A stretch of DNA of 64,000 bases from an uncultured Lachnospiraceae bacterium (GCA_910587155.1 CAJULA010000008.1:32343-96342), one strand, 5' to 3'; shown: positions 8,695 to 33,116, counted from the stretch's first letter. The notes: a model not told the origin generated them from the sequence alone. A program made the numbers and translations.

Positions 8695-8707
8695 GAAGGA
8701 GAGGCAT

Positions 8708-9265: not shown

Positions 9266-9324
9266 ACATGGCGGTACGGCTTGCCGCAATATCAGGACGG
9301 GCTGCAGTAACTGACAAAAAAGGC

Positions 9325-9353: not shown

Positions 9354-9359
9354 CTCGTT

Positions 9360-9731: not shown

Positions 9732-9789
9732 ATTTGCGGCATTGCAAAGACATGGCTGAGAGCCGGGGAGGAAAGGAACTGCGCAGGGC

Positions 9790-10326
9790 ATGACAGAGAA
9801 AGAGAAAAAAGGCATCCGCGCACGCACAAGAGCGTCAGAGGCGGCTTATCTGGGGATGATGTTGGCGTTCGCACTGATACTGGGATATGCGGAGTCATTG
9901 ATTCCCCTTGTATTTGCTGTTCCGGGAATGAAGCTGGGACTGCCCAATCTGGCAGTCCTTCTGCTTCTTTTCCGCTCCGGGCCGAAAGAGGCATTTCTCG
10001 TCAATGTGCTGCGCATTATGTTAAGCGGTTTTTTGTTCGGCAGTCTTTCCAGTATTCTGTACAGCCTGGCAGGAGGTGTGCTGAGCTTTTCGGTGATGCT
10101 GCTCGGTAAGAAAACAGGGCGCTTCGGTGTATGCGGCATCAGTATTGCGGGCGGGGTAATGCACAATGTGGGACAGCTCGCCATAGCGGCAGTTGTGGTA
10201 GAGAGCGGAGGGCTTTTTTATTATCTGCCCCCGCTTCTGGCGGCGGGCGCCGTGACAGGCCTGTTAAACGGTATTGTGGCGGAGCAGATACAAAAGCGTG
10301 TCCAGGGACATCTCCCTGAGAAATAA
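9790..10326 (+). CDS. Gx transporter family protein (heptaprenyl diphosphate synthase component I-like)
   Basis: Polytopic membrane protein with a LGYAESLIP...PGMKLGLPN motif. Confidence 0.8.
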   Translation: MTEKEKKGIRARTRASEAAYLGMMLAFALILGYAESLIPLVFAVPGMKLGLPNLAVLLLLFRSGPKEAFLVNVLRIMLSGFLFGSLSSILYSLAGGVLSFSVMLLGKKTGRFGVCGISIAGGVMHNVGQLAIAAVVVESGGLFYYLPPLLAAGAVTGLLNGIVAEQIQKRVQGHLPEK

Positions 10327-10344
10327 CAGGATGGGACAGACACT

Positions 10345-10956
10345 ATGATTGCATATGTAAAAGGTACATTGGAAGAGATCACGGAGGGCAATGCCGTGGT
10401 GGAAGTAGGCGGTATCGGATATAACATCAGGATATCGGCGGGGACGATGAACCGGCTTCCCCGTCTCCATCAGCCGGTCACACTGTATACCTATACGGCG
10501 GTGCGGGAAGATGCTTTCTGGCTGTACGGGTTTCTGACCAGAGAGGAGCTGGAAGTGTTCCGGCTGCTGATCACGGTTAACAGTGTGGGACCCAAAGGGG
10601 CTCTTGGCATTTTATCCGTGATGAGTGTGTCGGAACTGCGGTTTGCCATTCTGGCGGGAGATGTAAAGCTGCTGTCACGGGCGCCGGGAATCGGCAGGAA
10701 AACGGCCGAACGGCTGATCCTTGACTTGCGGGACCGGATACCTGCGGACGAGGCTGCAGGGAGCGTATCCCTGCCCGGGGCTTCTCTGCCGGGAACCGGG
10801 GGAGGCGGCGCGAAGGGAGAAGCGGTGGAAGCGCTGGTAGCGCTGGGATATGGCTCCGGGGATGCCTGGAAGGCAGTGAATGCGCTTACCGACATGGAAG
10901 AAGCGGATGTGGAGACGATCTTAAAAGCAGCCCTTAAGCAGATGGTATCATTTTAA
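10345..10956 (+). CDS. ruvA: Holliday junction branch migration protein RuvA
   Basis: MIAYVKGTLEEI...GIGYNI... followed by HhH motifs (VNSVGPKGALGIL, APGIGRKTAERLILDL). Confidence 0.95.
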   Translation: MIAYVKGTLEEITEGNAVVEVGGIGYNIRISAGTMNRLPRLHQPVTLYTYTAVREDAFWLYGFLTREELEVFRLLITVNSVGPKGALGILSVMSVSELRFAILAGDVKLLSRAPGIGRKTAERLILDLRDRIPADEAAGSVSLPGASLPGTGGGGAKGEAVEALVALGYGSGDAWKAVNALTDMEEADVETILKAALKQMVSF

Positions 10957-18127: not shown

Positions 18128-18466
18128 ATGAGATTTTACAGAGAACTGTATGTGGGGGATTCCATACACCATGCCGGTCGGGTCAAATGGAAGCTGCGGC
18201 ATCATGCGGGACAGCTGCGGGTTTTTGTCATTGTGCTGGCGGGAGGATGTGATCAGCTGGAGATTATCCACTGTGCCATCCTTAAGCAGAAGTACTACCG
18301 GCGCCGTCCGCTTTTCGTGGTGGGAATCGCGGGCGGCTATACGGAAGCCCTTTTACTCGTTCAGAAGATGGTCTCCGATATTTACGGAAAGACAGGCGGC
18401 TGTGAACTAAAGCAATATTTTTTGAAGGATTGGAACGGACAGACCAAAACCAGTGCCGACAGGTGA
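18128..18466 (+). CDS. Hypothetical protein (about 112 aa)
   Basis: ORF starting MRFYRELYVGDSI... The ATG at 18128 avoids overlap with the NUDIX gene. No family recognised. Confidence 0.5.
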   Translation: MRFYRELYVGDSIHHAGRVKWKLRHHAGQLRVFVIVLAGGCDQLEIIHCAILKQKYYRRRPLFVVGIAGGYTEALLLVQKMVSDIYGKTGGCELKQYFLKDWNGQTKTSADR

Positions 18467-18515
18467 CTGGCTGACTGTCCGTCATGTGAGTTTCGGTGAG
18501 AGCGCAGAGGAATTT

Positions 18516-19607
18516 ATGCTGTATATACTTGGAATGACTGGAAAATGGATCGGGATCATACTGCTTTGTATCCTGATACTGCTGGCGGCACTGCTGTTGG
18601 CGGTACTGTTTGTTCCCATCCGTTATCATCTGTCTGCGGTCAGGGAAGAAAACGGCCCGCCGCAGGGAAAAGTAAGAGTGTACTGGCTGTTTTCACTGGT
18701 GTCGGCGTCTGCCGCCTGGGAGGGCGGATTGAAGTATGGGCTGCGGCTATGCGGATTCCCTGTCTATGGGAATCTGAAAAGCGGCAAAGGGAAAGCCGGG
18801 GCCGGGAAAAAAGCGGCCGGGAAAGAACGGCGCAGGAGCCGGAAGAAAAAGCATCCCCCAAAGACATCGACACCGGAAGAAGAAACAGAAAAAAAAGTGA
18901 CAGTGGATTCGCCGGTGCAGGAGCGGCGCCCGGAAGAGGCATCCGGATACAGGCAAAAGGACGACCCGCTGCAGCCGGGCAGAGAGACAAACGGGGATAC
19001 GGCAGAAGCCGCGGCGCCGCAGCCGCGAGGCGAAGCGGAGACGGTGTCCGGGCCGGAAGATACTGACAGAAAAAAAGAAAAGGAAAAGCGCAAAAAGCCC
19101 GGGTTCAGAGTGCGATTGTCGGAATTTTGGCAGAAAATACTGTCCTTTTTGCGTATGCTGGGCAGACTGATTGCGAACCTGTTGGCGCTGCCTGAACGGC
19201 TGCGGAAAAAGGCGGAGGATCTGAAAGAAAAAGCGGATCGGTATGTAACGTTTTTGCAGAGCGAAGAGTTTGTGCAGGCAGTGGCCGTATGCAAAAAACA
19301 GCTGTTATTTCTGGTAAGGAGCATAAAACCCCGAAAAATACGGGCGGATATCCGCTTTGGATTTTCAGATCCGGCGACGACAGGGCAGATTCTTGCGTTT
19401 GTGGGAATGATATATCCGCTGCTTGGAAAAACTGTTATTCTGAGGCCGGATTTTGAAGAGGCGCTCTGCTGCGGAAAGATCACGGTGAAAGGCAGAATTT
19501 TCCTGTTTGATCTGCTCAGAATCGCATGGATATTGTATTTCAATAAAAATATAAAACGATTGATCCGTATGTGGAAGAAGGAGGAAGCATTGCATGATGG
19601 ACAATAA
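18516..19607 (+). CDS. DUF2953 (YtfI-like) sporulation-associated membrane protein with a large charged insert
   Basis: N-terminal TM helix (WIGIILLCILILLAALLLAVLFVP). Lies directly upstream of, and overlaps, a GerW/YtfJ gene, as in the Bacillus ytfI-ytfJ pair. Confidence 0.65.
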   Translation: MLYILGMTGKWIGIILLCILILLAALLLAVLFVPIRYHLSAVREENGPPQGKVRVYWLFSLVSASAAWEGGLKYGLRLCGFPVYGNLKSGKGKAGAGKKAAGKERRRSRKKKHPPKTSTPEEETEKKVTVDSPVQERRPEEASGYRQKDDPLQPGRETNGDTAEAAAPQPRGEAETVSGPEDTDRKKEKEKRKKPGFRVRLSEFWQKILSFLRMLGRLIANLLALPERLRKKAEDLKEKADRYVTFLQSEEFVQAVAVCKKQLLFLVRSIKPRKIRADIRFGFSDPATTGQILAFVGMIYPLLGKTVILRPDFEEALCCGKITVKGRIFLFDLLRIAWILYFNKNIKRLIRMWKKEEALHDGQ

Positions 19608-19986
19608 TTTTTCAGGAGTTGTGGATTCTCTGCTGAAAGGCATGGACAGTGTATTATCCACCAAGACCGTAGTGGGGGAAGCCACGAAAATCGGAGATAC
19701 CATTATTCTGCCTCTGGTGGATGTGACGTTTGGTGTGGGCGCAGGCGCCTCCAAGGGCGATAAAAAGAATGGCGGTATGGGTGGTATGTCCGGAAAGATG
19801 ACACCGTCCGCCGTGCTGGTGATCAAAAACGGCCAGACAAAACTGGTCAATGTGAAGAATCAGGATACGGTAACAAAGATCCTGGATATGATACCGGATC
19901 TCGTGGAGCGTTTTACCACGAAAAAAGAAGATATGCCTGCGGACGCGGAAGCGGTGGAGATCGCCTTTCCGGAGGAAAAAGAGTAA
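19594..19986 (+). CDS. ytfJ: GerW/YtfJ-family sporulation protein
   Basis: AGGAGG RBS. TKTVVGEATKIGDTIILPLVDVTFGVGAG....PSAVLVIKNGQ is typical of the family. Confidence 0.85.
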   Translation: MMDNNFSGVVDSLLKGMDSVLSTKTVVGEATKIGDTIILPLVDVTFGVGAGASKGDKKNGGMGGMSGKMTPSAVLVIKNGQTKLVNVKNQDTVTKILDMIPDLVERFTTKKEDMPADAEAVEIAFPEEKE

Positions 19987-20192: not shown

Positions 20193-20849
20193 ATGTGGCA
20201 ATTGCAGGAGTTGAGGGTTTTGCGTACAATGAGGGAAAGGGAAACCATGGAGTCCGGGCATCTGGAAGCGCCCGGCAGACAGTTAGAGGAAGTGCAGGAG
20301 AAGGAAGAAAAGGAGAAACAGGAAGAGGGGCTGCGGACCCTGGAGGGGAAAGAATCGCAGGAAGCATGGGCTGCACTGGAGCGGGAGAGGGAGCTGCTGA
20401 CAAAGCAGCAGGAACGGCTCAGGCAGGAGCGGGAGCGGTTTTATGAAGAGATGCGGGAAATGCAGACCCGGATGGACAACGAAAGAAGGCGGATGGAAGA
20501 AGCCGGTAAGACTCTGAAAAAGGACGAGCTCTTTTTTCAGCAGAAAATGGAAATTTTAAAGGGAGGCTTCGCGCAGTTGGCTCAGGACCGCAAGGCGCTG
20601 GAGAGGGATAAGATACTGCTGGAAGCAAAGCTGGAAGAGCGGCGCAGCAGTCAGTGCGGCGCAGGGTATGACGGGGTGCGGCTTTTTTTCAGTGGTGTCA
20701 GCAATCCGCTCACACTGAAGAAACGTCATCGGGATCTGGTCAAGATATTCCATCCGGACAACCTCTGCGGCGATACGAAACTGCTGCAGCAGATTAACCG
20801 CATGTATGAAACGATGCTGGAAGAAGTGGGATGGAAAAAAAAGGCATAA
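20193..20849 (+). CDS. Coiled-coil protein with C-terminal J-like domain (HPD present)
   Basis: Glu/Arg-rich coiled coil followed by KKRHRDLVKIFHPDNLCGDTKLLQQINRMYETM. The start is uncertain (ATG at 20193, 20229 or 20247). Confidence 0.7.
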   Translation: MWQLQELRVLRTMRERETMESGHLEAPGRQLEEVQEKEEKEKQEEGLRTLEGKESQEAWAALERERELLTKQQERLRQERERFYEEMREMQTRMDNERRRMEEAGKTLKKDELFFQQKMEILKGGFAQLAQDRKALERDKILLEAKLEERRSSQCGAGYDGVRLFFSGVSNPLTLKKRHRDLVKIFHPDNLCGDTKLLQQINRMYETMLEEVGWKKKA

Positions 20850-21202: not shown

Positions 21203-21565
21203 ATGAAAAGGACTTCGATGAATACCCGGATGGGAACAATTCTGATTGATAATGAAGTGATTGCCCAGTATGCGGGCTCGGTGGCGGTGGAATGCTTCGG
21301 CATCGTGGGAATGGCGTCCGTCAATGTCAAAGACGGCATTGTAAAGCTGCTGAAAAAAGACAGCATCACACACGGAATCGCCGTGACCGTCGGCGCGGAT
21401 CACAGGCTGACGCTGGATTTCCATGTGATCGTATCCTATGGCGTGAGTATACTGACGGTAGCGGACAACCTGACAGACAGTGTCAGATACAAGGTGGAAG
21501 AATTTACAGGACTTGAGATAGAAAAAATTAATATCTATGTGGAAGGAGTCCGGGTAATTGACTGA
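21203..21565 (+). CDS. Asp23/Gls24-family envelope stress protein (YloU-like)
   Basis: AGGAGG RBS. IDNEVIAQYAGSVAVECFGIVGMA is typical of the family. Confidence 0.9.
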   Translation: MKRTSMNTRMGTILIDNEVIAQYAGSVAVECFGIVGMASVNVKDGIVKLLKKDSITHGIAVTVGADHRLTLDFHVIVSYGVSILTVADNLTDSVRYKVEEFTGLEIEKINIYVEGVRVID

Positions 21566-21575
21566 TAAGGAGGAA

Positions 21576-23228
21576 ATGCCAGTGGTTTGTAATGAGATCG
21601 GAGCCGGGATGATCGCGAAGATGTTTCTGGCCGGCGCCCGCAGTCTGGAGGCAAAAAAAGAATGGATCAATGAACTGAATGTGTTCCCGGTGCCGGACGG
21701 AGATACCGGTACGAATATGACAATGACCGTCCTTTCGGCAGCCCGGGAAGTGGCGGCTCTGAAAGACCCTGATATGAAGGAGCTTTCAAGAGCGATTGCT
21801 TCCGGCTCGCTCAGGGGGGCACGGGGAAATTCAGGCGTGATCCTGTCGCAGCTCTTCAGGGGCTTTACCAAAGGAATCGAAGGATATACGAGGATAACGG
21901 TGCCGGTATTTGCGGATGCCTTTACCAAGGCGGTGGAGACGGCCTATAAAGCGGTTATGAAACCAAAGGAAGGGACGATTCTTACCGTGGCCCGCAGCGG
22001 CGCCGAGCGGGCGGCACAGCTCAGCGAAGAGGGCGAAGAAAATCTGGAAGTTTTTTTCCGGGAGATTTTGGAGCATATGGAGTATACGCTCAATCAGACA
22101 CCGGAAATCCTGCCGGTACTGGCGCAGGCAGGTGTGGTTGATTCGGGCGGGCAGGGGCTGCTGGAGGTATTGAAGGGCGCTGTTGACGCTTTTCTGGGCA
22201 AAGAGACGGATTACGCGCCGATTCTGCCTGTCTCTGCGAATGACCGGGAAGAAATGCCCGCTGTCGCGGAAACCGCGGAAATACGGTTTGGTTACTGCAC
22301 GGAATTTATTATCATGACAGAGCGGCCGGTAGAGAGAAGAAGGGAAGAGGCTCTGAAGACGTATCTGGAATCCATAGGGGATTCTCTTATCGTCGTGGCG
22401 GATGAAGAGGTCATTAAGGTACATGTACATACCAATGACCCGGGTCTGGCTATTCAGAAAGCGCTGACATACGGCCAGCTTTCCCATATGAAAATAGATA
22501 ATATGCGTCTGGAGCATCAGGAAAAGCTGTTTAGGCAGGCGGAAAAGCCGCCGGAGGAAAAGCCGCACAAGGCGATGGGCTTTGTCGCCGTATGCGCAGG
22601 GGAAGGCCTGTGCCGGATCTTTCGTGAACTGGGCGCCGATGAGATCATAGAAGGCGGACAGACAATGAACCCGAGCACGGAAGATATGCTGCAGGCCATC
22701 CGGGCGGTTGCGGCAGACACGGTTTTTATCCTCCCCAACAATAAAAATGTGGTGATGGCGGCGCAGCAGGCCAGGGATATGACCGATGACAAAAAGGTGA
22801 TCGTGATGCCCTGTCACAGCGTACCCCAGGGTATCACTGCCATCGTCAGCTATGTACCGGAGCTGTCCGCGGAGGAGAATGAAAGTTCCATGCTGGAAGA
22901 AATCGGCCATGTGAAAACCGGACAGATCACCTATGCGGTCAGAGATACTTCCGTAAACGGCAGAGAGATCCGCCAGGGAGACTACATGGGGATCGACGAT
23001 ACGGGAATTGTGGCTGTCAGCAGTCATCTGGAGCGGGCAGTGCTGGAAACCGTGGGGGTGATGGCAGATGACGGGACGGAACTGCTCAGTATCTATTACG
23101 GAAAGGAAGTAAAAGCGGAGGACGCTGAGGCGGTAAAAGAGAAGATAGAGAGGAAATATCCGAAGCTGGATATCGAACTTCAGGACGGCGGTCAGCCTGT
23201 CTACTATTATCTGCTCTCCGCAGAGTAG
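21576..23228 (+). CDS. yloV: DAK2 domain fusion protein YloV
   Basis: TAAGGAGGA RBS before the ATG at 21576. DAK2 motifs are present (PDGDTGTNM, GARGNSGVILSQ) with a C-terminal DegV-like half. Confidence 0.9.
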   Translation: MPVVCNEIGAGMIAKMFLAGARSLEAKKEWINELNVFPVPDGDTGTNMTMTVLSAAREVAALKDPDMKELSRAIASGSLRGARGNSGVILSQLFRGFTKGIEGYTRITVPVFADAFTKAVETAYKAVMKPKEGTILTVARSGAERAAQLSEEGEENLEVFFREILEHMEYTLNQTPEILPVLAQAGVVDSGGQGLLEVLKGAVDAFLGKETDYAPILPVSANDREEMPAVAETAEIRFGYCTEFIIMTERPVERRREEALKTYLESIGDSLIVVADEEVIKVHVHTNDPGLAIQKALTYGQLSHMKIDNMRLEHQEKLFRQAEKPPEEKPHKAMGFVAVCAGEGLCRIFRELGADEIIEGGQTMNPSTEDMLQAIRAVAADTVFILPNNKNVVMAAQQARDMTDDKKVIVMPCHSVPQGITAIVSYVPELSAEENESSMLEEIGHVKTGQITYAVRDTSVNGREIRQGDYMGIDDTGIVAVSSHLERAVLETVGVMADDGTELLSIYYGKEVKAEDAEAVKEKIERKYPKLDIELQDGGQPVYYYLLSAE

Positions 23229-23265
23229 GATGTTTTTTTCGGCGGTTTTGCGGACCTTCGCCCTG

Positions 23266-24000
23266 TCAGGTACGTATTTTGGTCAGGACATAGCCGAACC
23301 TGATCCATCTGTTGAAGGCGGCTTCCTCTTCCCTGTCTATGATGATCGGTCTGCCCAGATTGTTGACCGGTTCCAGTACCCAGGGAGAGGAGGCGGCCAG
23401 TCTGCGGACGTAGACGCGGCCCGTGTCCTTATTCAGAAAGATTCCGGTATCGCCCTCGTGGATCGCCTTTTTGCAGATCAGAAGGATGTCGCCATAATGA
23501 TAGGCCGGATGGAGATGATCGGATGTGATCTGTATACCGCAGTAAAGATCGTCTCCGAATTTTTTGCGGTAGGAAGCGGCATTGATTTTATAGAAATGAG
23601 AAGAATCATACAGCATGCCGTCTTCCATACTGCCTGTGGGTACAAAGACGGTAATATAATCGTCCGTATCTGTATGATCCTCGGAAAAGTCGATTTCGAA
23701 ATCAAGGATACCTCTGACAAAATTTTGCTGCCGGGGAGACATGCTTTTCCATTTCTGGAGAAGCCGGGTATCCTCTTCATACTGATCAATCAGTTCCAGA
23801 ATTGCCTTCCCCGTCATGGCCTGCAAAAGTTGTGCCGTATACAGATCAATTTTTGTCGTTGAGCCGGAGATGATTTTCTTATAACCGGACAATGACATTT
23901 CCAGCTTCTTTGCCATCTGCGCCTGTGTCAGTCCGCGCTTTAATCTCTCCTTTTCCATATTCAGCGTAAAATTCTTTGCAATCTCCTGCTTTGATAACAT
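23266..24000 (-). CDS. XRE-family HTH repressor with C-terminal S24 (LexA/CI-like) peptidase domain
   Basis: HTH is LKRGLTQAQMAKKLEMSLSGYKKIISG. The C-terminus has TGSMEDG ... GDILLICKK ... GDTGIF ... RVYVRRL, resembling the S24 Ser/Lys fold. The ATG at 24000 gives MLSKQE. Confidence 0.8.
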   Translation of the reverse strand: MLSKQEIAKNFTLNMEKERLKRGLTQAQMAKKLEMSLSGYKKIISGSTTKIDLYTAQLLQAMTGKAILELIDQYEEDTRLLQKWKSMSPRQQNFVRGILDFEIDFSEDHTDTDDYITVFVPTGSMEDGMLYDSSHFYKINAASYRKKFGDDLYCGIQITSDHLHPAYHYGDILLICKKAIHEGDTGIFLNKDTGRVYVRRLAASSPWVLEPVNNLGRPIIIDREEEAAFNRWIRFGYVLTKIRT

Positions 24001-24099
24001 GACAGTACCTCTACAAATGGTCACTTTCGGAACCATTTTTTATCTTTGGAAACGGATCAGGAAAGGCTTTTGGCCATGACAGTAACTCCTTTTCCGGTA

Positions 24100-24115
24100 T
24101 ATAATTCGAATTATA
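24100..24115. promoter_or_regulatory. Perfect 16-bp palindrome (candidate operator) in the divergent promoter region
   Basis: TATAATTCGAATTATA reads as TATAAT on both strands. ATGACA lies 18 nt upstream on the + strand. Confidence 0.6.
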
Positions 24116-24169
24116 ACACACGCGTAATAATATTGAAATAAAAATGTAAGATAGAAGGGCGGGATATCT

Positions 24170-24661
24170 ATGAAAAGGGAATTTGTGGAGCATGTGTTAA
24201 TATCAATGGGAATGCCCGTGAAGCTGAAGGGCTTTAAGTATATTGCAGAAGCGGTGCTGCTTCTGGATACACCCGAGTGGCAGGAACCTAAATGGACGGC
24301 TCTGTATTACAAGATCGCCAGATTATACGGAGATACGGAATCACGGGTGGAACGGGCCATCCGCAATGCGTTTACCACAACCCGTACCCGGGTTACCAAC
24401 TATGAACTGATTGATCATTACATTGGATTTACCAATTGTCAGAATTCCAACTCTATTACCTTTCTACACCGAAACATCAAAGAAGAATTTTTGAAAAAGC
24501 AGCAAGAAGAAAAAACGGAATTTATATGGGACGAAGAACAGGAGATACAGTTTGCAGAGGTAACACTGGAACAACTTCAGTCTTTCAACGAAGTAACCGC
24601 AGATATGATCAAAGAGATCGTGCGCAAGACATTGAAGGAGATGCTATTTGAACTCGCATAA
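24170..24661 (+). CDS. Stand-alone Spo0A C-terminal (DNA-binding) domain protein, no receiver domain
   Basis: GMPVKLKGFKYIAEAVLLL....ALYYKIARLYGDTESRVERAIRNAF matches the Spo0A_C helix pattern. An acidic C-terminal extension follows. Confidence 0.75.
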   Translation: MKREFVEHVLISMGMPVKLKGFKYIAEAVLLLDTPEWQEPKWTALYYKIARLYGDTESRVERAIRNAFTTTRTRVTNYELIDHYIGFTNCQNSNSITFLHRNIKEEFLKKQQEEKTEFIWDEEQEIQFAEVTLEQLQSFNEVTADMIKEIVRKTLKEMLFELA

Positions 24662-24670
24662 CAGTAATTG

Positions 24671-24716
24671 AAACGACGGATGACAAAGCAGGGAGCATGT
24701 CAGCCGTCGTTTTTGA
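24671..24716. terminator. Terminator hairpin between the convergent Spo0A_C gene (+) and LRR gene (-)
   Basis: AAACGACGGATGACA ... TGTCAGCCGTCGTTT forms a stem of about 15 bp with 1 mismatch, followed by TTTT on the + strand. Confidence 0.6.
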
Positions 24717-24732
24717 TATTCCTCTATGTATA

Positions 24733-26676
24733 TCAGCGGATCAGGATGTCATCCAGTCCGGCCGTATCGGCGATGGGGTTGTCTTCACAGAGAACGAATT
24801 CCAGCGCGGGAAGCTCAGTGAGCGGTGTCAGGTCAACGACGTAATTGTCGGTGATGTCCAGCAGTCTTAACCCGGTCAGACCATACTCGGAAAGAAATGT
24901 CAGGTCGGTCAGTTCATTTCCCTTCAGATATAGAGTATCCAGTCCGGGGAAGTTTTCAAACATATCGGTATGCTGGGACAGGGTCAGTTTCTGCTCATCC
25001 TGCAGCCAGCCCCGTCCGCCCGCGTCAGTGAGCTGATAAAGGGTAACATTGTCCATATCCAGCACCCTCAGATTTTCATTTGGAGAAAGAGATTCCGTAT
25101 TCAGCCCGATGTTGCAGTCAGCCATATAGAGCTCCTCAAGAGTGGGAATGGAGAGGAGTGCGGCTGCGTCTGCATAGACGGTGCTGCCTGTGATATCCAG
25201 TCCCAGCAGACCCGGAATGCGTGTGACAGGTTCCAGATTGACGTGATAGCCGGACATATCATACAGATCAAGATAGATCAGATTGTGCAGGGAATCCAGA
25301 AACGTCAGATCTTCGCAGTTACAGTCATCCAGAGACAGATAAGACACATTGCCCGCGTCGCGCACGGCGCTTATGTCACCGGCCCCTTTTATGCCCAGAT
25401 ATTCCAGATTCTGCAGTCCGGCAAAAGAAGGAAGGGTGTTTTCATAGGAAACAGTCAGCTGTAGCTGTGTCAGGTTCGTCAGTTTTTCCAGTGTGCTTAA
25501 ATCACTGATTTTCCAGGTATCTTCAAGGCTTAATTCTGTCAGGGAATCCGCACACGATTCCAGCGCGTGAATGGACATCAGTTCATCCGTATCAGAAAGA
25601 TAGAGTGCGGACAGCATGGGCATATTTTCCACGAAACCGATATCCTTCAAAGAGGAAGACTCGATGGAAAGATGCTGCAGTGCGCCCAGGTCGTAAAGCG
25701 GACTGAAATCCGAGACACGGTCGCAGTCGGCAAGGGAAAGCCCTTCCAGGCCGGGCACGGACGAGAGTGCGCTGATATCCTGCATATCCGAACAGTCTGC
25801 CGCAAAGAAGATCAGATTGGGGAAATTTTCGATGCCGTCGCAGGAGTTCATGAAAATAGTGGAGTTGATCTGGATATAGGAGATATTTTGCGGATCAGGC
25901 ACCGCATCATACAGTTCGCTCAGTGTCATATCGGAAGAGATGCAGGCCAGAGAGTCCATACCTTTTAAGTCGCCCGGATTCAGATGTCCGTATTCCAGAG
26001 CCAGCCAGGAAACGTTTTTGAAACAGGAGAGATCCGCCAGATCCATGTACAGGTCTTCATTGAGAAAATAATTTATGGTCGTACCGTCATCCAGACAGCA
26101 GGAAATACATTTACGGTTATCATCGTCATAGTACAGATCCAGTTCTGTAATCTGGTTCAGATGCGCCATTGTGATCTCGGAAAAATCCACATCAAAAATC
26201 TGAGAAACCAGTACCTGAAATGACTCTGACTGGGGAAGCGCATCCTCTTCCATGACGGCGCTTTCATATTCTGACGCAGTGCTTTCCGTGGGAGCGGCGA
26301 CAGTGGAAGCATCCACATCTTCGCCGGACAGGCTTGAGACATGGAAGAGGGCCACGGCGACGACAAAGACAAAGACAATGCCAAATGTGACCCAACCGAT
26401 GATGGCGGAAACATTTGCCTTGTTATTATGGCGGGAAGCGGATACCGTGATGCCGCGCGGCGGCTGATAAGGAATCTGCCCTCCTGCATAGGTCTGCTGA
26501 TTTGTGACAGGCCCCGGCTGCATCGCGGGCTGCTGCCACTGGGGCGTGGAATCCACAGATATGGGAGATGTGGCATCTTTATCTATGATCTGATAATAAC
26601 CGCAGTTCTGACAGATCATACGGCCGTCCTGCTCTCTCATGCGTGTGGAACAGATGGGACATTTTTCAAGTTTCAT
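24733..26676 (-). CDS. Zinc-ribbon / single-TM / leucine-rich-repeat (LRR) protein
   Basis: N-terminal CPIC...CQNC ribbon, Gln/Pro-rich linker, TM helix (IIGWVTFGIVFVFVVAVALF), then about 500 aa of LxxLxLxxN/C-type repeats. Confidence 0.85.
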   Translation of the reverse strand: MKLEKCPICSTRMREQDGRMICQNCGYYQIIDKDATSPISVDSTPQWQQPAMQPGPVTNQQTYAGGQIPYQPPRGITVSASRHNNKANVSAIIGWVTFGIVFVFVVAVALFHVSSLSGEDVDASTVAAPTESTASEYESAVMEEDALPQSESFQVLVSQIFDVDFSEITMAHLNQITELDLYYDDDNRKCISCCLDDGTTINYFLNEDLYMDLADLSCFKNVSWLALEYGHLNPGDLKGMDSLACISSDMTLSELYDAVPDPQNISYIQINSTIFMNSCDGIENFPNLIFFAADCSDMQDISALSSVPGLEGLSLADCDRVSDFSPLYDLGALQHLSIESSSLKDIGFVENMPMLSALYLSDTDELMSIHALESCADSLTELSLEDTWKISDLSTLEKLTNLTQLQLTVSYENTLPSFAGLQNLEYLGIKGAGDISAVRDAGNVSYLSLDDCNCEDLTFLDSLHNLIYLDLYDMSGYHVNLEPVTRIPGLLGLDITGSTVYADAAALLSIPTLEELYMADCNIGLNTESLSPNENLRVLDMDNVTLYQLTDAGGRGWLQDEQKLTLSQHTDMFENFPGLDTLYLKGNELTDLTFLSEYGLTGLRLLDITDNYVVDLTPLTELPALEFVLCEDNPIADTAGLDDILIR

Positions 26677-26852
26677 ACGTATCTTGTTCCTTTCCTGTAA
26701 TAGTGGATATCGCTTTCTCTCCGTACACGGCGTACTGCCAGGGGATTGAGGTATACCCTTGTAATGATTATTTTAACATAAATAAGGATAAAGGGGAATT
26801 GTGATTTATGGCAGGAAGGGGTAAAATAATCTGAGACAGGGGAGGTGCGGCG

Positions 26853-28187
26853 ATGAAGAGCAGGAAAAACAAAATCTGTTATCTATTGCCGGTCCTGCTT
26901 ATTCTGGCTGTGGCCCTGGGACTGTCGCCGGTGACGGAATGGGTTCGCAGAGAAAAGGGTGAGCGGGAGGGAATTGTGATTGACATAGAGGATAACAGTG
27001 AGTATGCCGGGAATCCGGATTATGAGTTGTATGGTTATACCCGCTATATCCGGGACGGAGAGCTGCTGCTTCGGGCGGAGCGGTATGACGGCGACGGGTG
27101 GCAGCAGGAATGGATGCAGTGGGTTTACGACGAAGCGGGGCGGACGGCAGAGGAACGCTTTTGCGACGGCCCGGGGCGTGAGTGGGAAACGGGTAAAGAG
27201 AAACAATATGAATATGATGAACAGGGAGACCTTGTGCATGAATGGGAGTACGAAAACGGTATCCTGAATGAGGAGAGCTTTTACCGGCCGCTGGAGGAAG
27301 GATTTGCAGGCGTCACTTATACTTACGAAGTGTCCGGAAAAGAAGGAAACAACCCCTTGTGGCAGATCGCTTCCTACGAGTCCTATGTGTGCAATACACA
27401 AGGGGACGTCCTCTATTGTCTGCGCTATGACAAAGATGGGGAACTGACCTCATCCATGCGTGCGTACTATGATGAGAGGGGACGGCTGCTCGGATGGAAG
27501 GAAGGCAGCAGGGAGGATGCGAGATGGCGGGTATACAGTGCCGACTGGCAGGAGGAGGGTGGCACGGTTGCCAATACCGTAACCTGTTTCGGGAGGACGG
27601 TGTATGCGGAAACCTATGTTCGCGATCCGGCTACGGATGCACTGCTTCTGACGGCACATACGCCGGGGAGCGAGACGGGAGAGGACTCGGGCATCTACCG
27701 GGCGGCGTATGACAAAAGCCAGCTTTTATGGGAGATGAGCTGCCTTGGAGAAAGACTGGACTGCTTTCGGTCTCTTTGTTATGACCAGGCCGGAGCACTC
27801 AGTCACGAACTGGCATGTGTGGCGTATGATGACGGATTTGACTGTGTGCTGCGCCGTTATGAATATGACAGCGAGGGAAGACTGCTGGGAATGTATGATT
27901 ATGAGAGTCGCGTCGTATATGGAGCGATGGGCATGGACGGCGGCAACGGATATGCAGTGCTTGCCGCGGAAACATTCGGAAAATGGCCGCTTGCGATCCT
28001 GATCTATGATCCGGACGGTGAGGTAAGGGAACGTCTGTCGTTTGATGAATCCGGCATGTTTACTGAGGAAAAGAAAGCTGGCGGAAGTATGAAGGAGTGG
28101 GAGGGAGAACCAAAACATGGCAATGATAGGAATCGATCTGGGAACGACAAATTCACTGGCGGCACTCTGGCGGGGCGGCCGGGTTGA
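26853..28187 (+). CDS. Membrane-anchored YD-repeat (Rhs-like repeat) protein
   Basis: GGGGAGGTG RBS and an N-terminal TM/signal anchor. Repeated YD motifs are present (VYDEAGRT, YEYDEQGDLV, RYDKDGEL, YYDERGRLLG, YEYDSEGRLLG, IYDPDGEV). The last 71 nt overlap the Hsp70 gene. Confidence 0.7.
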   Translation: MKSRKNKICYLLPVLLILAVALGLSPVTEWVRREKGEREGIVIDIEDNSEYAGNPDYELYGYTRYIRDGELLLRAERYDGDGWQQEWMQWVYDEAGRTAEERFCDGPGREWETGKEKQYEYDEQGDLVHEWEYENGILNEESFYRPLEEGFAGVTYTYEVSGKEGNNPLWQIASYESYVCNTQGDVLYCLRYDKDGELTSSMRAYYDERGRLLGWKEGSREDARWRVYSADWQEEGGTVANTVTCFGRTVYAETYVRDPATDALLLTAHTPGSETGEDSGIYRAAYDKSQLLWEMSCLGERLDCFRSLCYDQAGALSHELACVAYDDGFDCVLRRYEYDSEGRLLGMYDYESRVVYGAMGMDGGNGYAVLAAETFGKWPLAILIYDPDGEVRERLSFDESGMFTEEKKAGGSMKEWEGEPKHGNDRNRSGNDKFTGGTLAGRPG

Positions 28188-29835
28188 GCTGATCCCCAAT
28201 TCATTTGGGGAATATCTGACGCCGTCGGTGGTCGGTATCGGACAGGGCGGAGAGATCCATGTGGGCCGGGTGGCGGCGGAGATGCTTATCACCAGTCCGG
28301 CACATGCCTTTGCAGAATTCAAGCGCAATATGGGGACAGACTGTAAATATGGAAAGGATGGGGCCTATACGGCAGAAGATCTTTCTTCTTTCGTACTGCG
28401 CAGGCTGAAGGAGGATGCGGAGGCCTATCTGGGAGAGCCGGTCACGGAAGCGGTGATCAGCGTCCCGGCCTATTTCAATGACGATAAACGATGCGCCACA
28501 AAAAATGCGGGGAAGCTGGCCGGGCTCCATGTAGAGCGTCTGATTAATGAGCCTTCCGCCGTAGCCCTGAAGCATCATATGGGAAACGAAGAGGCGGAAA
28601 CGTTTATTATCTTTGACTTTGGCGGCGGCACGCTGGATGTTTCGCTTGTCGACGCGTTTGACAATATGGTGGAAATCCAGGCGGTGGCAGGAGATAATCA
28701 CCTTGGCGGCAAAGATTTCAATGAGCTGATTGCCGCTGAGTTTTACAGAGAAAATAAGATTATGGAGCATCTGCTGACGGAGGAAGAGCGGGGAATCGTC
28801 ATCAAAGAGGCAGAAGCGCTCAAACGCCAGCTTACGGATACTGACAGTGCCAGACGGACAGTCATACTTGGCGGCAGAGAATATACAATGCGGATGACAA
28901 ACCAGCATCTGATCCATACGGGCGCAGAACTGTTTCGCAGGATGGCGGTTCCCATCAGACAGGTAATCAGTGACAGCGGGCTGGAGGTGGGAGATATCGA
29001 CAAGATTATCCTGGCCGGCGGTTCCTGCCGGATGCCCGTGGTGGCCCGTTATCTGAGAACTCTGTTGGATATCCCGGTGGTGGCGGATGAAAATCCCGAT
29101 GAGAGCATCGCCATGGGAGTCGGTATCGCGGCTGCCATCAAGGAGCGTGAGGGAGATGTCAGGGATATGATCCTGGCGGATATCTGCCCCTTTTCCCTGG
29201 GAGTCGCTGTTTATGACGGGAGTTTTTCCCCGATTATACAGAGAAATGATACCCTGCCCTGCAGCCGGACAGAATATTATGTGACGGTCAGCGACAACCA
29301 GACGGCTATGAAGTTTCCTGTCTATCAGGGGGATAATCTGATTGCCAGAGAAAACCTGCTGCTTGGAACGATGGAGATCACCGGCCTTCCCCGGGCGCCG
29401 AAAGGAACCGTGGGCGCCTCCGTCACCTTTCTGTATGATATCAATGGTATTCTTGATATCCGTATTGACAGCGGCAGACAGAAGCTGCACAAGGTAATCA
29501 TGAACAAACGGATGGGCTTAAGCGAACAGGCGCTGGAGAAACGGCTGGAAGAACTGCGGCAGATGACCCTCAGTCCCATGGAGGATGAGAAAAATCTGTA
29601 CCTGATTGAAAAGGCGCAGCGACTGTACCGGGAATGCAGCCCCGGCGTGAGAAGCTATCTTGTGTCGGCGCTGATGCATTTCCGCGAAGTGCTGGAAAAC
29701 GGGCAGGGACGGGAAATCAGGGAAGCCTATGTACAGTTTTCCGTTTATCTGGACGCGATAGAGAAAAACAAGTTTCATTTCAGCGGCTTTGACGAATCCT
29801 TTTTTGAAGACGACAGGGAAGATGAGATGGACTGA
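28117..29835 (+). CDS. Hsp70-family chaperone, short HscC-like type (572 aa)
   Basis: IGIDLGTTNS, NSFGEYLTPSVV, VISVPAYFNDDKR, DFGGGTLDVS, LAGGSCRMP, FSPIIQRNDTLP. From memory it resembles E. coli HscC more than DnaK, and it lacks the DnaK C-terminal EEVD-type tail. Confidence 0.9.
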   Translation: MAMIGIDLGTTNSLAALWRGGRVELIPNSFGEYLTPSVVGIGQGGEIHVGRVAAEMLITSPAHAFAEFKRNMGTDCKYGKDGAYTAEDLSSFVLRRLKEDAEAYLGEPVTEAVISVPAYFNDDKRCATKNAGKLAGLHVERLINEPSAVALKHHMGNEEAETFIIFDFGGGTLDVSLVDAFDNMVEIQAVAGDNHLGGKDFNELIAAEFYRENKIMEHLLTEEERGIVIKEAEALKRQLTDTDSARRTVILGGREYTMRMTNQHLIHTGAELFRRMAVPIRQVISDSGLEVGDIDKIILAGGSCRMPVVARYLRTLLDIPVVADENPDESIAMGVGIAAAIKEREGDVRDMILADICPFSLGVAVYDGSFSPIIQRNDTLPCSRTEYYVTVSDNQTAMKFPVYQGDNLIARENLLLGTMEITGLPRAPKGTVGASVTFLYDINGILDIRIDSGRQKLHKVIMNKRMGLSEQALEKRLEELRQMTLSPMEDEKNLYLIEKAQRLYRECSPGVRSYLVSALMHFREVLENGQGREIREAYVQFSVYLDAIEKNKFHFSGFDESFFEDDREDEMD

Positions 29836-29858
29836 CCGGCAGGAGAAGGGAAGAATCT

Positions 29859-30986
29859 ATGGATATATGGAACGTGCTGGGGATTGCGCGGACGACGGAT
29901 ATCCGGCAGATCAAAGGAGCCTACGCCCGGCAGGCCAGACAATATCATCCCGAGGATCACCCGGAGCAGTTTCGCCTGCTGCAGAAGGCTTACAAAGCGG
30001 CGCTGCAGTATGCCAGAAACGGCGGGCGCACGGGGACGGCACACATACAGTCCGGGGACCTGGGGAGAGAGCCGGAGGCCCATACGCAGCCGATGGACTG
30101 CCGGACAGAGCCGGAGGCCCGTATGCAGCCTGCGGATCGGCGCCCGGAGCCGGAATCCGGGCAGTCGCCTGTTGTTCTGCCAAGGGACGTGCCCTCCGCT
30201 GCGTCATCGTCTGCGCCGGCCGGAGCCGGAACGGGCGAAGAACGGGAGTTTGATTTTTCCGGGATTGATGCAGACGGGGAAAAAAACAGTTTCTTTGTGC
30301 AGTTTCATCTGATTGTCTGCAATCCGTGTCTGATCAATAACCGGATTGCCTGGAATCTGTTTCTGAACAGGCCAAAGTGCCAAAAACTGTTTCAGGAGCC
30401 TGCCTTCAGGGAAGAATTTGTCAGAACTCTCTGTGGTCTGCATGGATTTCGCAGAGATACCCTCCTTTTGTTTGAACAATATCTGAAACAGTTTCACCAG
30501 GAACAGGAGGGACAACGCGGCAGACGCAGGGAAACGGATCTGCCCTGTTTTTTAAAGATGAAATGGCTCCATACCCGGATGGCCGCATTTGACAGCGAAA
30601 GATTTAAGGGAAAAGAAGGTATGGCGTTCCAGAATATGGTCATGGCCCGTTTTCGCCGTCAGGAACGCATGATTGATCTGGGGCGCCGCAGGGATGTGGA
30701 AGATTATATGCAGGTTTACTTCGCATTTGCCGCTTCCAATGAAGAAAAACTGTACCGCCTTTACCGGAAAAGGAAATATGCCCGCCTGCGAAGCGTCGTT
30801 TTGTGCCTGCTGATCCTTTCGCTTTCCTTTACCGCTATTTTGGGCGGCGGACTTTTGCAGGGCAGGGCGGCCCGGAGGGCAGAGGAGGCCTATCGGGAGG
30901 AGATCCGTTCTCAGCAGGAAAAACAGGCGCCTGCGATCAGAACAAGGGCCGAGAAAGAGATAGACAGGATACTGGAGAAGTATTGA
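29859..30986 (+). CDS. J-domain protein with C-terminal TM helix (DjlC-like architecture); HPD replaced by HPE
   Basis: The J domain reads MDIWNVLGIARTTDIRQIKGAYARQARQYHPEDHPEQFRLLQKAYKAAL. A Pro/Glu repeat linker follows, then the hydrophobic helix VVLCLLILSLSFTAILGGGLL near the C-terminus. Confidence 0.85.
   Translation: MDIWNVLGIARTTDIRQIKGAYARQARQYHPEDHPEQFRLLQKAYKAALQYARNGGRTGTAHIQSGDLGREPEAHTQPMDCRTEPEARMQPADRRPEPESGQSPVVLPRDVPSAASSSAPAGAGTGEEREFDFSGIDADGEKNSFFVQFHLIVCNPCLINNRIAWNLFLNRPKCQKLFQEPAFREEFVRTLCGLHGFRRDTLLLFEQYLKQFHQEQEGQRGRRRETDLPCFLKMKWLHTRMAAFDSERFKGKEGMAFQNMVMARFRRQERMIDLGRRRDVEDYMQVYFAFAASNEEKLYRLYRKRKYARLRSVVLCLLILSLSFTAILGGGLLQGRAARRAEEAYREEIRSQQEKQAPAIRTRAEKEIDRILEKY
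30069..30160 (+). repeat. Imperfect 39-bp tandem repeat (about 2.4 copies) inside the J-protein gene
   Basis: Units start at 30069, 30108 and 30147, each opening with GAGCCGGA; units 1 and 2 share GAGCCGGAGGCCC, unit 3 reads GAGCCGGAATCC. They encode EPEAHTQPMDCRT / EPEARMQPADRRP / EPESGQSP. Confidence 0.6.
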
Positions 30987-31009
30987 TCACATGGCGCCCG
31001 AACATCAGG

Positions 31010-31038
31010 TTGTAATTTTATCTTCGTTTTGTTAGAAT
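31010..31038 (+). promoter_or_regulatory. Promoter candidate for recG with extended -10
   Basis: TTGTAA, a 17-nt spacer ending in TGT, then TAGAAT. Confidence 0.45.
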
Positions 31039-31082
31039 ATGTTAAGGTTATTGTCAGAGCATGTTCTGATGGGAGAGTACAG

Positions 31083-33116
31083 ATGGAATCAAATTCGCAA
31101 ATCCGCGTATTAAAAGGCGTCGGTGAGAAGACGGCCGCTCTGTTTGAAAAAATTGGCATAGGGAATATAGAGGATTTGCTGCGGCATTATCCCCTGGCCT
31201 ATGATACGTTTTCTGCCGCTGTTGCGATGGACAGGCTGCAGGCCGGTGTGCTGTGTGCGGTGCGCGGACGGCTGTCCGGGGGGATTGCCATGAGGCGGGT
31301 ACGCTCTCTTACGATCTCCGTCTGCCGGGTCAGCGACGGGACGGAGACGGTTTCCCTCACTTTTTTTAATATGCCGTATCTGAAAAACAGGATAAAGCCG
31401 GGAGAAGACTATATTTTCCGCGGTGTGGCGCAGGGCGGGCCGGGGAAATGGAAGATGGAACAGCCTGCGGTCTGTACGCCTTCCGCTTATGAAGAACTGC
31501 TTGATACCCTGCAGCCCCGGTATTCTCTGACAAAGGGACTGACCAATCATATGGTGACAAAGGCAATGCGGCAGGCTCTTTCCCTTTGCAGCGGGCCGGG
31601 GGAGTATTTACCGGAGGATATCCGGGCATGCTATGATCTGATGGAATACCGGGAGGCACTGGAAGGCATTCATTTTCCCGCGCACAGAGACATGCTGCAA
31701 AAGGCGAGGAACCGGCTGGTATTTGATGAATTTTTTCTGTTTATACTGCGATTGCGGTGGTGCCGGGAGCATGAACAGGCGGCGGAGAACAGATGGCCCA
31801 TGGCGGACAGGCCGGAGAGCGAGCGGCTGATCCGGGAGCTGCCGTATCCTCTGACGGGTGCGCAGAGACGGGTCTGGGACGAGATCAAAGCGGACCTTGC
31901 GGGAAAGACGGTGATGAACCGGCTTATACAGGGGGATGTGGGGTGCGGCAAAACGATATTGGCAGTGCTGGCCTTGCTGCAGACAGTGGCCTGTGGCTGG
32001 CAGGGTGCGCTGATGGCGCCGACGGAAGTGCTGGCAAGGCAGCATTTTGAATCCCTGTGCGAGCTGACAAAGGCGCATGACCTGCCCTTTGTCCCCCTGC
32101 TTTTGACCGGTTCCATGTCAGCCAGGGGAAAAAAAGAATGCTACCGACAGATTGAGTCAGGAGAGGCCAATGTGGTGATCGGTACGCATGCGCTCATTCA
32201 GGAAAAGGCAGTGTATCGGAATCTGGCGCTTGTGGTGACGGACGAGCAGCACCGTTTCGGTGTGCGTCAGCGGGAAGCACTGGCCGGAAAGGGGACAGAT
32301 ACCCATGTGCTTGTCATGAGCGCCACGCCCATCCCCAGGACGCTGGCCCTTATTCTCTACGGGGATCTCCACATCTCACTCGTGGATGAGATGCCGGCCC
32401 GGCGTCTGCCGATCAAAAACTGTGTGGTGGATATCTCTTACCGGGAAAAAGCGTACCGCTTTATCGGAAAGGAGATCGAAAACGGCAGACAGGCCTATAT
32501 TATCTGCCCCATGGTAGAGGAGGGGGAGATGGAAGGGCTGGAGAATGTAGTGGCCTACAGTGAAAAACTAAAGGGTATCTTTCCTGCGCAGGTACGGATT
32601 GCCGCTCTTCACGGCAGGATGAAAGCTGCGGAAAAAAACAGGATTATGGAGGCGTTTGGCCGGGGAGAGATTGATATTCTTGTCTCCACAACCGTGGTGG
32701 AGGTAGGAATCAATGTCCCCAATGCTTCGGTGATGATGGTGGAAAATGCGGAACGTTTCGGTCTGGCGCAGCTCCATCAGCTCCGCGGAAGGGTGGGAAG
32801 GGGCAGTGAGCAGTCCTACTGTATTTTTGTCAGCACGTCCGGGCAGACGCATACGATGGAGCGGCTGTCGGTTCTGCGCAGATCCAATGACGGGTTTCTG
32901 ATTGCGGAAGAGGATCTGCGGCTGCGGGGGCCGGGCGACATGTTTGGGATCAGACAGAGCGGCAGTCTGGAATTCAGGCTGGCGGATATTTATCAGGATG
33001 CAAAGATATTACGGCAGGCAGACCGGGCAGTGGAAGATCTTCTGAGGAAGAAAGGCGGCATGACGGGAGATCTGGGGCTGTCTCTTCCCTATATGGTTGA
33101 CTTTGCAGGCATCTGA
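31083..33116 (+). CDS. recG: ATP-dependent DNA helicase RecG
   Basis: GGGAGAG RBS before the ATG at 31083. LPYPLTGAQRRV, Walker A GDVGCGKT, DEQHRFGV, and the TRG-region QLHQLRGRVGRG. Confidence 0.95.
   Translation: MESNSQIRVLKGVGEKTAALFEKIGIGNIEDLLRHYPLAYDTFSAAVAMDRLQAGVLCAVRGRLSGGIAMRRVRSLTISVCRVSDGTETVSLTFFNMPYLKNRIKPGEDYIFRGVAQGGPGKWKMEQPAVCTPSAYEELLDTLQPRYSLTKGLTNHMVTKAMRQALSLCSGPGEYLPEDIRACYDLMEYREALEGIHFPAHRDMLQKARNRLVFDEFFLFILRLRWCREHEQAAENRWPMADRPESERLIRELPYPLTGAQRRVWDEIKADLAGKTVMNRLIQGDVGCGKTILAVLALLQTVACGWQGALMAPTEVLARQHFESLCELTKAHDLPFVPLLLTGSMSARGKKECYRQIESGEANVVIGTHALIQEKAVYRNLALVVTDEQHRFGVRQREALAGKGTDTHVLVMSATPIPRTLALILYGDLHISLVDEMPARRLPIKNCVVDISYREKAYRFIGKEIENGRQAYIICPMVEEGEMEGLENVVAYSEKLKGIFPAQVRIAALHGRMKAAEKNRIMEAFGRGEIDILVSTTVVEVGINVPNASVMMVENAERFGLAQLHQLRGRVGRGSEQSYCIFVSTSGQTHTMERLSVLRRSNDGFLIAEEDLRLRGPGDMFGIRQSGSLEFRLADIYQDAKILRQADRAVEDLLRKKGGMTGDLGLSLPYMVDFAGI

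Follow-up and report, generated by a model that had tools for sequence, protein, structure and literature searches.

Gene content of the yloV-recG interval

We analyzed the interval between yloV and recG (positions 23229-31082) in a 64-kb stretch of DNA from an uncultured Lachnospiraceae bacterium (GCA_910587155.1, CAJULA010000008.1:32343-96342). The whole stretch of 64,000 nucleotides is called the window below, positions are window coordinates unless the locus of a relative is named, and the loci of relatives carry L-numbers. The left flank of the interval is the conserved gene yloV, which encodes a FakA-like DAK2 protein (21558-23228, + strand; Pfam Dak2, FakA-like_M and FakA-like_C) and has a terminator-like hairpin and T-run across its stop codon (23210-23239, +). 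The right flank is the conserved gene recG (31083-33116, +, with the ATG at 31083), which contains RecG_wedge, DEAD, Helicase_C and RecG_dom3_C domains. The six genes in between can be divided into three modules. Module 1 (23266-24661) is a putative switch formed by the genes of an XRE-family protein and a stand-alone Spo0A_C protein, module 2 (24733-26676) is the gene of a leucine-rich repeat (LRR) protein, and module 3 (26853-30986), the largest, is an operon encoding a YD-repeat protein, an HscC-like Hsp70 and a J protein.

A first-pass annotation, made from the sequence alone, had already listed the six genes, a palindrome, a two-way terminator and a promoter-like site of recG. Open reading frame (ORF) calls and Pfam/NCBIfam scans reproduced all of these positions, as well as the yloV end at 23228 and the recG start at 31083. 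The map required a correction in module 3: the YD ORF overlaps the start of the Hsp70 gene by 71 nt. A similar overlap of 68 nt is found in L001.

The Hsp70 and J proteins of module 3 resemble HscC and DjlC

Module 3 is preceded by a sigma-70-like promoter (TTGTGA-17-TAAAAT, 26799-26827, +), which is also visible in L001, L083 and L100. No CIRCE, CtsR or 0A box was found in 23000-31200. The conserved sigma-A-like promoter and the lack of CIRCE and CtsR boxes suggest that the operon is not obviously part of the heat-shock regulon, and we rejected classical heat-shock control on these grounds.

The second gene of the operon encodes an Hsp70 of 572 amino acids (aa) (28117-29835, +; HSP70, E = 1.7e-116). 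Public assemblies call this protein as 524 aa, with a start after the YD stop codon (window 28117-28260; L106 16704-18278). This call shortens the Hsp70 by 48 residues, and the N-terminal phosphate-binding motif MAMIGIDLGTTNS is lost. More than 100 relatives are present in Lachnospiraceae with 66-88% identity, compared with 60-64% for yloV in the same family, and NCBI and JGI name relatives "molecular chaperone HscC".

According to previous studies, HscC proteins are 550-580 aa long, shorter than DnaK, and are characterized by a deletion in lobe I, the lack of the GrpE-signature loop, an insertion in loop L1,2 and a deletion in helix B (PMC8215388). Read from its start at 28117, the window Hsp70 falls within this range of lengths. 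In an alignment of the window protein with HscC, DnaK and HscA from E. coli MG1655 (alignment A1), it shows 36% identity to HscC, compared with 32% to DnaK and 29% to HscA. The lobe-I deletion in the nucleotide-binding domain (DnaK residues 76-101) is present in the window Hsp70 and HscC and not in DnaK or HscA (A1 columns 97-120). The GrpE-signature loop is absent from the window Hsp70, HscC and HscA, opposite ATGPKH of DnaK (columns 308-313), and a deletion of ~9 residues in lid helix B is common to the window Hsp70 and HscC only (columns 572-582). With three of the four HscC indels present, this alignment suggests that the Hsp70 belongs to the HscC class. HscC-type Hsp70s and other DnaK derivatives are widespread and largely unexplored, with no defined client (PMC8215388, PMC13580251). 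HscC itself has DjlC as its sole stimulating partner, membrane proteins are its probable targets, and its physiological role is otherwise unknown (PMC8215388).

The third gene encodes a J protein of 375 aa with a C-terminal transmembrane helix (29859-30986, +; DnaJ, E = 1.2e-7). Its AlphaFold 2 (AF2) model, with a pLDDT of 76, contains a J domain (residues 1-55), a disordered linker (57-135), a confident all-helical domain (141-293), a membrane helix (about 311-333) and a tail of 42 residues. The single predicted transmembrane segment (308-335) has a basic flank on its N-terminal side and is a continuous helix in the model. In the J domain, HPE (H30-P31-E32) replaces the usual HPD motif. All 14 homologues compared have HPE at this site, and it aligns with that of DjlB and DjlC. 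HPE is found in about 1% of J proteins and is typical of DjlB and DjlC (PMC10410713); it is the only tolerated replacement of HPD and marks the partners of HscC (PMC13254874). DjlB and DjlC are reported to be tail-anchored (PMC8215388). In the comparison with DjlC, overall identity of the window J protein is 20-21%, and only the J domain is conserved. The central helical domain carries the motif NPxxxNN..W..FL...FR..FV and belongs to no Pfam family; when it was compared with the PDB using Foldseek, only J domains were matched and no counterpart was found. Distant J homologues of about 600 aa (L113 2869-4674; P0139, P0140 and P0142) carry this domain twice.

Of the 13 lineages examined, 12 have the J gene directly 3' of the Hsp70 gene; in the remaining one, L109, a short extra J gene lies between the two. 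This extra gene (L109 3495-4109; L110 3946-4560) encodes 204 aa, and the N-terminus of its product is 48% identical to the window J domain. This one related species thus has two J proteins for one Hsp70, reminiscent of DjlB plus DjlC in E. coli.

A small membrane YD-repeat protein is coupled to the Hsp70-J pair

The first gene of module 3 encodes a YD-repeat protein of 444 aa (26853-28187, +), which is matched by RHS_repeat PF05593 (E = 4.6e-6) and TIGR01643 (E = 9.4e-5) and has one predicted transmembrane segment (residues 5-32). The AF2 model (pLDDT 84, pTM 0.75) contains an N-terminal transmembrane helix, ~28 beta strands arranged in hairpins (57-407), and a disordered, non-conserved tail (408-444). 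Its best Foldseek matches are Rhs effectors, teneurins and TcB/TcC shells, with E = 4e-10 to 1e-7. The TM-scores to real shells are 0.10-0.26, low as expected for an open partial sheet. According to the positive-inside rule, the YD sheet would be located outside the cell, with a short basic tail inside. By inspection, the sequence lacks the DPxGL motif of the Rhs core. The protein has no C-terminal toxin domain, and no immunity gene lies downstream of the YD gene, as this place is occupied by the Hsp70 gene in every lineage.

The YD family is small. A metagenome scan with a YD profile found at least five loci, and a word-indexed profile search found at least eight proteins, with large Rhs proteins probably crowding the candidates. 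This search was replaced by an exhaustive search of 1.84 billion representatives, which returned 32 proteins at E < 1e-10; roughly 25-30 of these are full-length relatives (390-500 aa). Wherever a YD-family locus includes downstream sequence, the Hsp70 and J genes follow, also in L113, in which the J protein is only 28% identical. The distance from the YD stop codon to the Hsp70 start is -71 to +55 nt in seven of eight lineages, and in L113 the gap is 63 nt. The YD gene is present in 8 of the 13 Hsp70-J lineages examined, and in three of these the triad is found at a different locus. The other five lineages (L086, L102, L104, L111 and L112) have no YD gene. Between the window and L001, identity is 61% for the YD protein and 57% for the J protein, compared with 88% for the Hsp70, and the first two have therefore diverged much faster. 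Our literature searches, which were limited, found nothing relevant on a YD/Hsp70 operon, and as far as these searches show, the YD-Hsp70-J triad is undescribed.

Away from the yloV-recG locus, the Hsp70-J pair has varied neighbors. In L081 and L088 it is flanked by a GHKL-type ATPase or Fic gene on one side and a TetR-MFS (major facilitator superfamily) pair on the other, and in L102 by a DUF3048 gene and a TetR-MFS pair. In L086 the neighbors are Coat_F, CotH and cellulose-synthase genes, and L104, L112 and L113 show other contexts. CotH and Coat_F genes neighbor the pair in both L086 and L088. The TetR regulator and MFS transporter genes are directly 3' of the pair (L081 12981-15010; L088 11203-13240; L102 6846-8939). 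Efflux pumps have been mentioned as HscC clients in a review, by way of speculation (PMC8215388). The adjacency could reflect a link to an efflux client, or equally inherited synteny.

The interval is nested and probably vertically inherited in one clade of Lachnospiraceae

A yloV scan with one genome per species gave 80 Lachnospiraceae loci, 74 of which include both yloV and recG. The two genes are adjacent in 69 of these 74 species, with a median gap of 86 bp (range 1-661 bp). The loci that depart from this arrangement come from the window organism's closest relatives, which form one genus-level clade, and the content of these loci is nested. Only the XRE and Spo0A_C genes lie between yloV and recG in L004 and L006, and these two genes plus the LRR gene are present in L003 and L005. 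All six genes are found in L001 and, through look-ups of Hsp70 relatives, in L083/L095 and L100/L101; together with L109, which probably has all six, this makes at least four further species. The order in L109 is YD-Hsp70-(short J)-J-recG. L111 has the order LRR-Hsp70-J-DUF305-recG, without a YD gene; its DUF305 gene (5358-5939) is on the opposite strand between J and recG. This junction has taken up further small insertions.

In neighbor-joining trees of recG and yloV, calculated without support values, a clade A (the window, L001, L083/L095, L100/L101 and L109) is set apart from a sister clade B. The triad lies upstream of recG in every member of clade A. The content of clade B at this locus ranges from XRE and Spo0A_C (L004, L006), through these two plus LRR (L003, L005), to LRR, Hsp70, J and DUF305 (L111). 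Neighbor-joining trees of the Hsp70 and J proteins mirror the recG tree. Identities between the window and L001 are 85% for XRE, 88% for Spo0A_C, 81% for LRR and 88% for Hsp70, and those of the flanking yloV and recG are 87% and 81%; the identities of the interval genes track those of the flanks. The GC content at third codon positions (GC3) is 0.58-0.61 in the triad and 0.59-0.67 in the flanks, and only the Spo0A_C gene is lower. The order of the six genes is identical on all 23 contigs read that carry the identical yloV of this species.

These observations of co-occurrence and phylogenetic pattern bear on the earlier description of the interval as a clade- or strain-variable accessory insertion. 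The interval is indeed extra DNA relative to the family norm, and it varies between clades. The same gene order on the 23 contigs speaks against variation between strains, and the content of the yloV-recG interval in the relatives forms nested subsets rather than one block, which argues against a single insertion of 7.8 kb. Gene neighborhoods of the Hsp70, J, YD and LRR proteins gave a similarly divided answer on co-occurrence: the six genes do stand together in the further species named above, and the triad or the Hsp70-J pair also recurs at other loci without relatives of XRE, Spo0A_C or LRR. XRE-Spo0A_C, with or without the LRR gene, in turn occurs without the chaperone genes. Since the modules occur apart from one another, the six genes do not form one system. 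We conclude that the interval is extra relative to the family and nevertheless old, fixed at about the genus level and vertically inherited, and that it took shape through repeated gain and through differential loss.

L008, which has no recG after yloV, was considered as an alternative island and rejected, as it is a rearrangement carrying housekeeping genes. This region (2163-10815) contains VanY, tgt, isocitrate/isopropylmalate dehydrogenase and YkuD transpeptidase genes, followed by class-V aminotransferase and 2-hydroxyacid dehydrogenase genes (serC/serA-like) and degV.

The proposed switch, the LRR module and the flanking regions

The XRE-family protein of module 1 (23266-24000, - strand, with the ORF reaching 24036; HTH_3, E = 4e-7) has a conserved C-terminal domain. 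Its likelier start is at 24000, as in public assemblies, giving 244 aa. The PHROG repressor family phrog_4 aligns with residues 20-237. The first-pass annotation had named it an XRE-S24 repressor. The XRE part of this name is borne out by HTH_3, and the S24 part is not, as Pfam and PDB sequence searches found no S24 match. An hhalign comparison of the C-terminal domain with LexA gave the expected register (GDILL / VxVRRL / LEPxN) at a non-significant E = 0.17, and the position of the catalytic lysine of LexA (Lys156) is an invariant arginine in the XRE protein (alignment A5, eight species).

The divergent gene encodes the stand-alone Spo0A_C DNA-binding protein (24170-24661, +; 163 aa; Pfam Spo0A_C, E = 4.8e-15), which has no receiver domain. 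TIGR02875 matches it over model positions 152-235 only, with 47.6 bits against a cutoff of 200, and phrog_24603 matches it with E = 1e-16. With no receiver domain and only a partial TIGR02875 match, this protein is not the sporulation master regulator. Its gene is the segment of lowest GC content in the interval (GC 0.43, GC3 0.49), and the XRE/Spo0A_C pair is intact in at least nine species. A sigma-70-like promoter of the Spo0A_C gene (ATGACA-18-TATAAT, 11/12; 24076-24105, +) has -35 and -10 blocks conserved across eight species. Its -10 box is overlapped by a perfect 16-bp palindrome, TATAATTCGAATTATA (24100-24115), which is unique in the window and a candidate XRE operator. The palindrome is identical in four clade-A species while the surrounding spacer diverges, and clade B retains its arms, as TATAATCCAGATTATA in L003 and L006. 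This conservation amid a diverging spacer supports a repressor-operator pair controlling Spo0A_C, and we infer that the palindrome is probably the operator of the XRE repressor. A bidirectional terminator hairpin, AAACGACGGATGACA...TGTCAGCCGTCGTTTTT (about 24671-24716), preceded by an A-run and followed by a T-run, sits between the convergent Spo0A_C and LRR genes.

Module 2 encodes a protein of 647 aa (24733-26676, -; LRR_4, E = 2.7e-22) with one predicted transmembrane segment (residues 86-119), which would separate a cytoplasmic zinc ribbon from an extracellular, internalin-like LRR array. NCBIfam internalin models match the protein with scores far under the family cutoffs. Orthologues are present in L003, L005 and L111, without a YD gene, and no link to the chaperone genes was found beyond the adjacency in clade A.

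At the right end of the interval, a promoter-like element precedes recG (TTGTAA-17-TAGAAT with TG, 9/12; 31010-31038, +). We note that sites of this quality are no denser here than expected by chance (11 sites, against an expectation of 8.5 +/- 2.8). Nevertheless, both L001 and L109 have the element conserved; it is absent from L083, where recG follows the J gene by 13 nt. To the left of the interval, a gene just upstream of rpmB (20220-20849, +) encodes a coiled-coil protein of 209 aa, the C-terminus of which resembles helices II-III of a J domain with an HPD motif (KIFHPDNLCGD). BLASTP aligned it with E. coli DnaJ in the right register at E = 0.063, and no match was found in Pfam, NCBIfam or PHROG. 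The protein is kept at this site in most Lachnospiraceae loci, with 34-80% identity. Further upstream of the conserved block, sporulation-associated genes (18453-19986) encode a DUF2953 protein, which contains a long basic insert of low complexity, and then Spore_YtfJ.

Tests for mobility, phage relatives and defense systems

The first-pass annotation had reported no integrase, transposase or flanking direct repeat that could explain how the interval arrived, and our domain and repeat scans agree. No integrase, recombinase or transposase was found among the interval ORFs of at least 60 aa in Pfam or PHROGs, flanking direct repeats were not above chance, and there is no tRNA or Rfam RNA at the interval. 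The interval had no megablast match in phage and plasmid collections, and the J protein had no tblastn match in plasmids. Scans of viral contigs with Spo0A_C, Hsp70 and an XRE profile found no relatives; these used short exact peptide patterns, which distant relatives could escape. On these results, phage or plasmid origin was rejected.

In PADLOC-DB v2, the sole match was a partial one of Spo0A_C to PDC-M01A (15 bits, E = 1.3e-3), which is at chance level, and a literature search on HscC in phage defense found nothing relevant. A defense system was therefore rejected as well. The earlier statement that the combination fits no named system thus holds for defense and toxin systems and does not hold for the Hsp70-J pair, which fits the HscC-DjlB/DjlC class. 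The interval is not a mobile island and not a defense island.

Origin and function of the interval

On balance, we believe that the yloV-recG interval is probably an old region that is specific to one clade and has been passed on by vertical descent. Its three modules, separate in function, would have been gained step by step and later pared back by differential loss. We hold this reading with moderate confidence. Several observations weigh against it. The trees carry no support values, so the order of gain and loss is not secure, and the absence of Hsp70-J from some clade-B members holds for the yloV-recG locus only, and the pair may be present elsewhere in these genomes. In clade A, one divergent intergenic region serves both the LRR gene and the triad, and co-regulation is possible. 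As for the HscC assignment, the insertion of 4-8 residues in loop L1,2 of the substrate-binding domain (NRQG in HscC, A1 columns 424-427) is absent from the window Hsp70 and its Lachnospiraceae relatives. The J protein has no detectable likeness to DjlC outside the J domain, and the 42 residues that follow its transmembrane helix mean that it has no strict tail anchor. Finally, the five lineages without a YD gene indicate that the YD protein is dispensable for the Hsp70-J pair.

Three other explanations were considered. We regard it as unlikely that module 1, perhaps together with all of the left part, descends from the immunity region of a prophage or integrative element that inserted 3' of yloV and then decayed, with the rest accreted later at a permissive site. 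The matches of the XRE protein to CI-like PHROG repressors and of Spo0A_C to phrog_24603, the divergent layout of repressor and operator, and a GC content that reaches the minimum of the interval here are all in line with such an origin. The PHROG matches and the low GC content do hint at phage-like ancestry of module 1, but the viral contigs and phage records contain no relatives, there are no att-like repeats and no integrase, and a pair that stays intact in so many species suggests a retained host function.

It is more doubtful still that the six genes are one accessory system acquired together, in which LRR and YD sensors signal through J and Hsp70 to XRE and Spo0A_C, possibly for defense or host interaction. 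Such a system would agree with the contiguity and shared order of the genes in at least four further species, with three of the products being single-pass membrane proteins, and with the divergence of the LRR gene and the triad around a region of 176 bp. The occurrence of the modules apart from one another argues against it, as do an operator found only once in the window, a bidirectional terminator that parts module 1 from the LRR gene, and the lack of any PADLOC match beyond chance level. Least probable of all, and in our opinion very improbable, is that the YD protein acts as a small polymorphic toxin of the Rhs type, or as a surface effector, with Hsp70-J as its export or activation chaperone: the Pfam and TIGRFAM repeat matches, the structural matches to Rhs, Tc and teneurin shells and the fast divergence of YD and J fit this idea, but the beta array of ~350 residues is roughly a third of a shell with TM-scores of 0.1-0.26, the DPxGL motif and a C-terminal toxin domain are missing, the downstream position is taken by Hsp70 instead of an immunity gene, and ORF and domain scans show no secretion-system genes nearby.

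Under the three-module reading that we favor, each module would have its own function. In module 1, the XRE repressor would bind the palindrome over the -10 box and thereby control the stand-alone Spo0A_C protein. Module 2 would place an LRR protein at the surface, with its zinc ribbon in the cytoplasm. Module 3 would be a sigma-A-type operon for an HscC-class Hsp70 and a dedicated DjlC-class co-chaperone, the HPE J domain of which may face the cytoplasm while its C-terminal helix sits in the membrane. By analogy with HscC and DjlC of E. coli, the Hsp70-J pair may work at the inner face of the membrane. The first gene of this operon, tightly coupled to the Hsp70 gene where present, would supply a membrane-anchored, outward-facing mini YD sheet, and the basic cytoplasmic tail and transmembrane segment of this protein could be handled by the chaperone pair during insertion or turnover. 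Most likely, the YD protein serves the membrane-tethered Hsp70-J pair as a dedicated partner or client that the pair can do without. A more specific proposal, of low probability and put forward only tentatively, is that the triad is a trans-membrane chaperone unit in which the membrane-anchored HPE J protein recruits the Hsp70, dedicated to the fast-evolving YD sheet either for control of its insertion and turnover or for linking cytoplasmic Hsp70 activity to an envelope or surface signal that the YD domain senses.

These findings have several implications. The HscC/DjlC design, with its indel pattern, HPE J domain and membrane anchor, reaches gut Lachnospiraceae, where the Hsp70 is better conserved than the neighboring housekeeping genes. 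The Hsp70-J pair repeatedly travels with one small membrane YD-repeat protein, which makes this protein a concrete candidate for a partner or client. If the triad is a dedicated unit, the YD protein would be the first client or partner to be defined for an HscC-type system. For genome annotation, the interval is an example of an island-like variable region that arose by layered gain and loss, and public calls of the Hsp70 should be read with the loss of the phosphate-binding motif in mind.

Comparison with known systems

The Spo0A_C protein of module 1 shares the DNA-binding effector domain of Spo0A and differs from it by the missing receiver domain and by a TIGR02875 match that is partial and under the cutoff. 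The XRE/Spo0A_C pair resembles CI/LexA-type repressor switches in its N-terminal HTH_3 domain, the palindromic operator over a divergent promoter, and the PHROG repressor matches. However, the C-terminal domain of the repressor is not detectably an S24 peptidase and has arginine at the position of the catalytic lysine, and the target is a stand-alone Spo0A_C gene rather than a Cro or lytic operon, with no prophage context. The LRR protein has an extracellular array that matches internalin models, similar to class 1 internalins, but an N-terminal zinc ribbon and transmembrane anchor replace the signal peptide with LPXTG or GW anchoring.

The YD protein has the hairpin repeat of Rhs/YD shells (Rhs effectors of type VI secretion systems, TcB/TcC and teneurins), both by sequence and by predicted fold. 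It is about a third of their size and would form an open sheet rather than a closed cocoon. It lacks a plug, an Rhs core protease, a toxin and an immunity gene, and carries an N-terminal transmembrane anchor.

The closest comparison is with HscC (YbeW) of E. coli and its co-chaperones DjlC (YbeV) and DjlB (YbeS). The window Hsp70 is like HscC in its length of 572 aa, the lobe-I deletion, the missing GrpE-signature loop and the shortened helix B, and differs from it in being only 36% identical and in lacking the L1,2 insertion. The window J protein is like DjlB and DjlC in having an N-terminal J domain with the rare HPE motif and a C-terminal membrane helix, and differs from DjlC in its dissimilar central helical domain and in the 42-residue tail after the membrane helix. 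In both organisms the J partner is encoded beside the Hsp70, but the neighbors are DUF1266 and Sel1-repeat genes in E. coli and the gene of a YD-repeat membrane protein in the window. In E. coli MG1655 (675-682 kb; L092 2712-7664), djlB and djlC are each preceded by a DUF1266 gene, with a Sel1-repeat gene near. HscC-type loci in two phyla thus both have repeat-protein neighbors, of different kinds.

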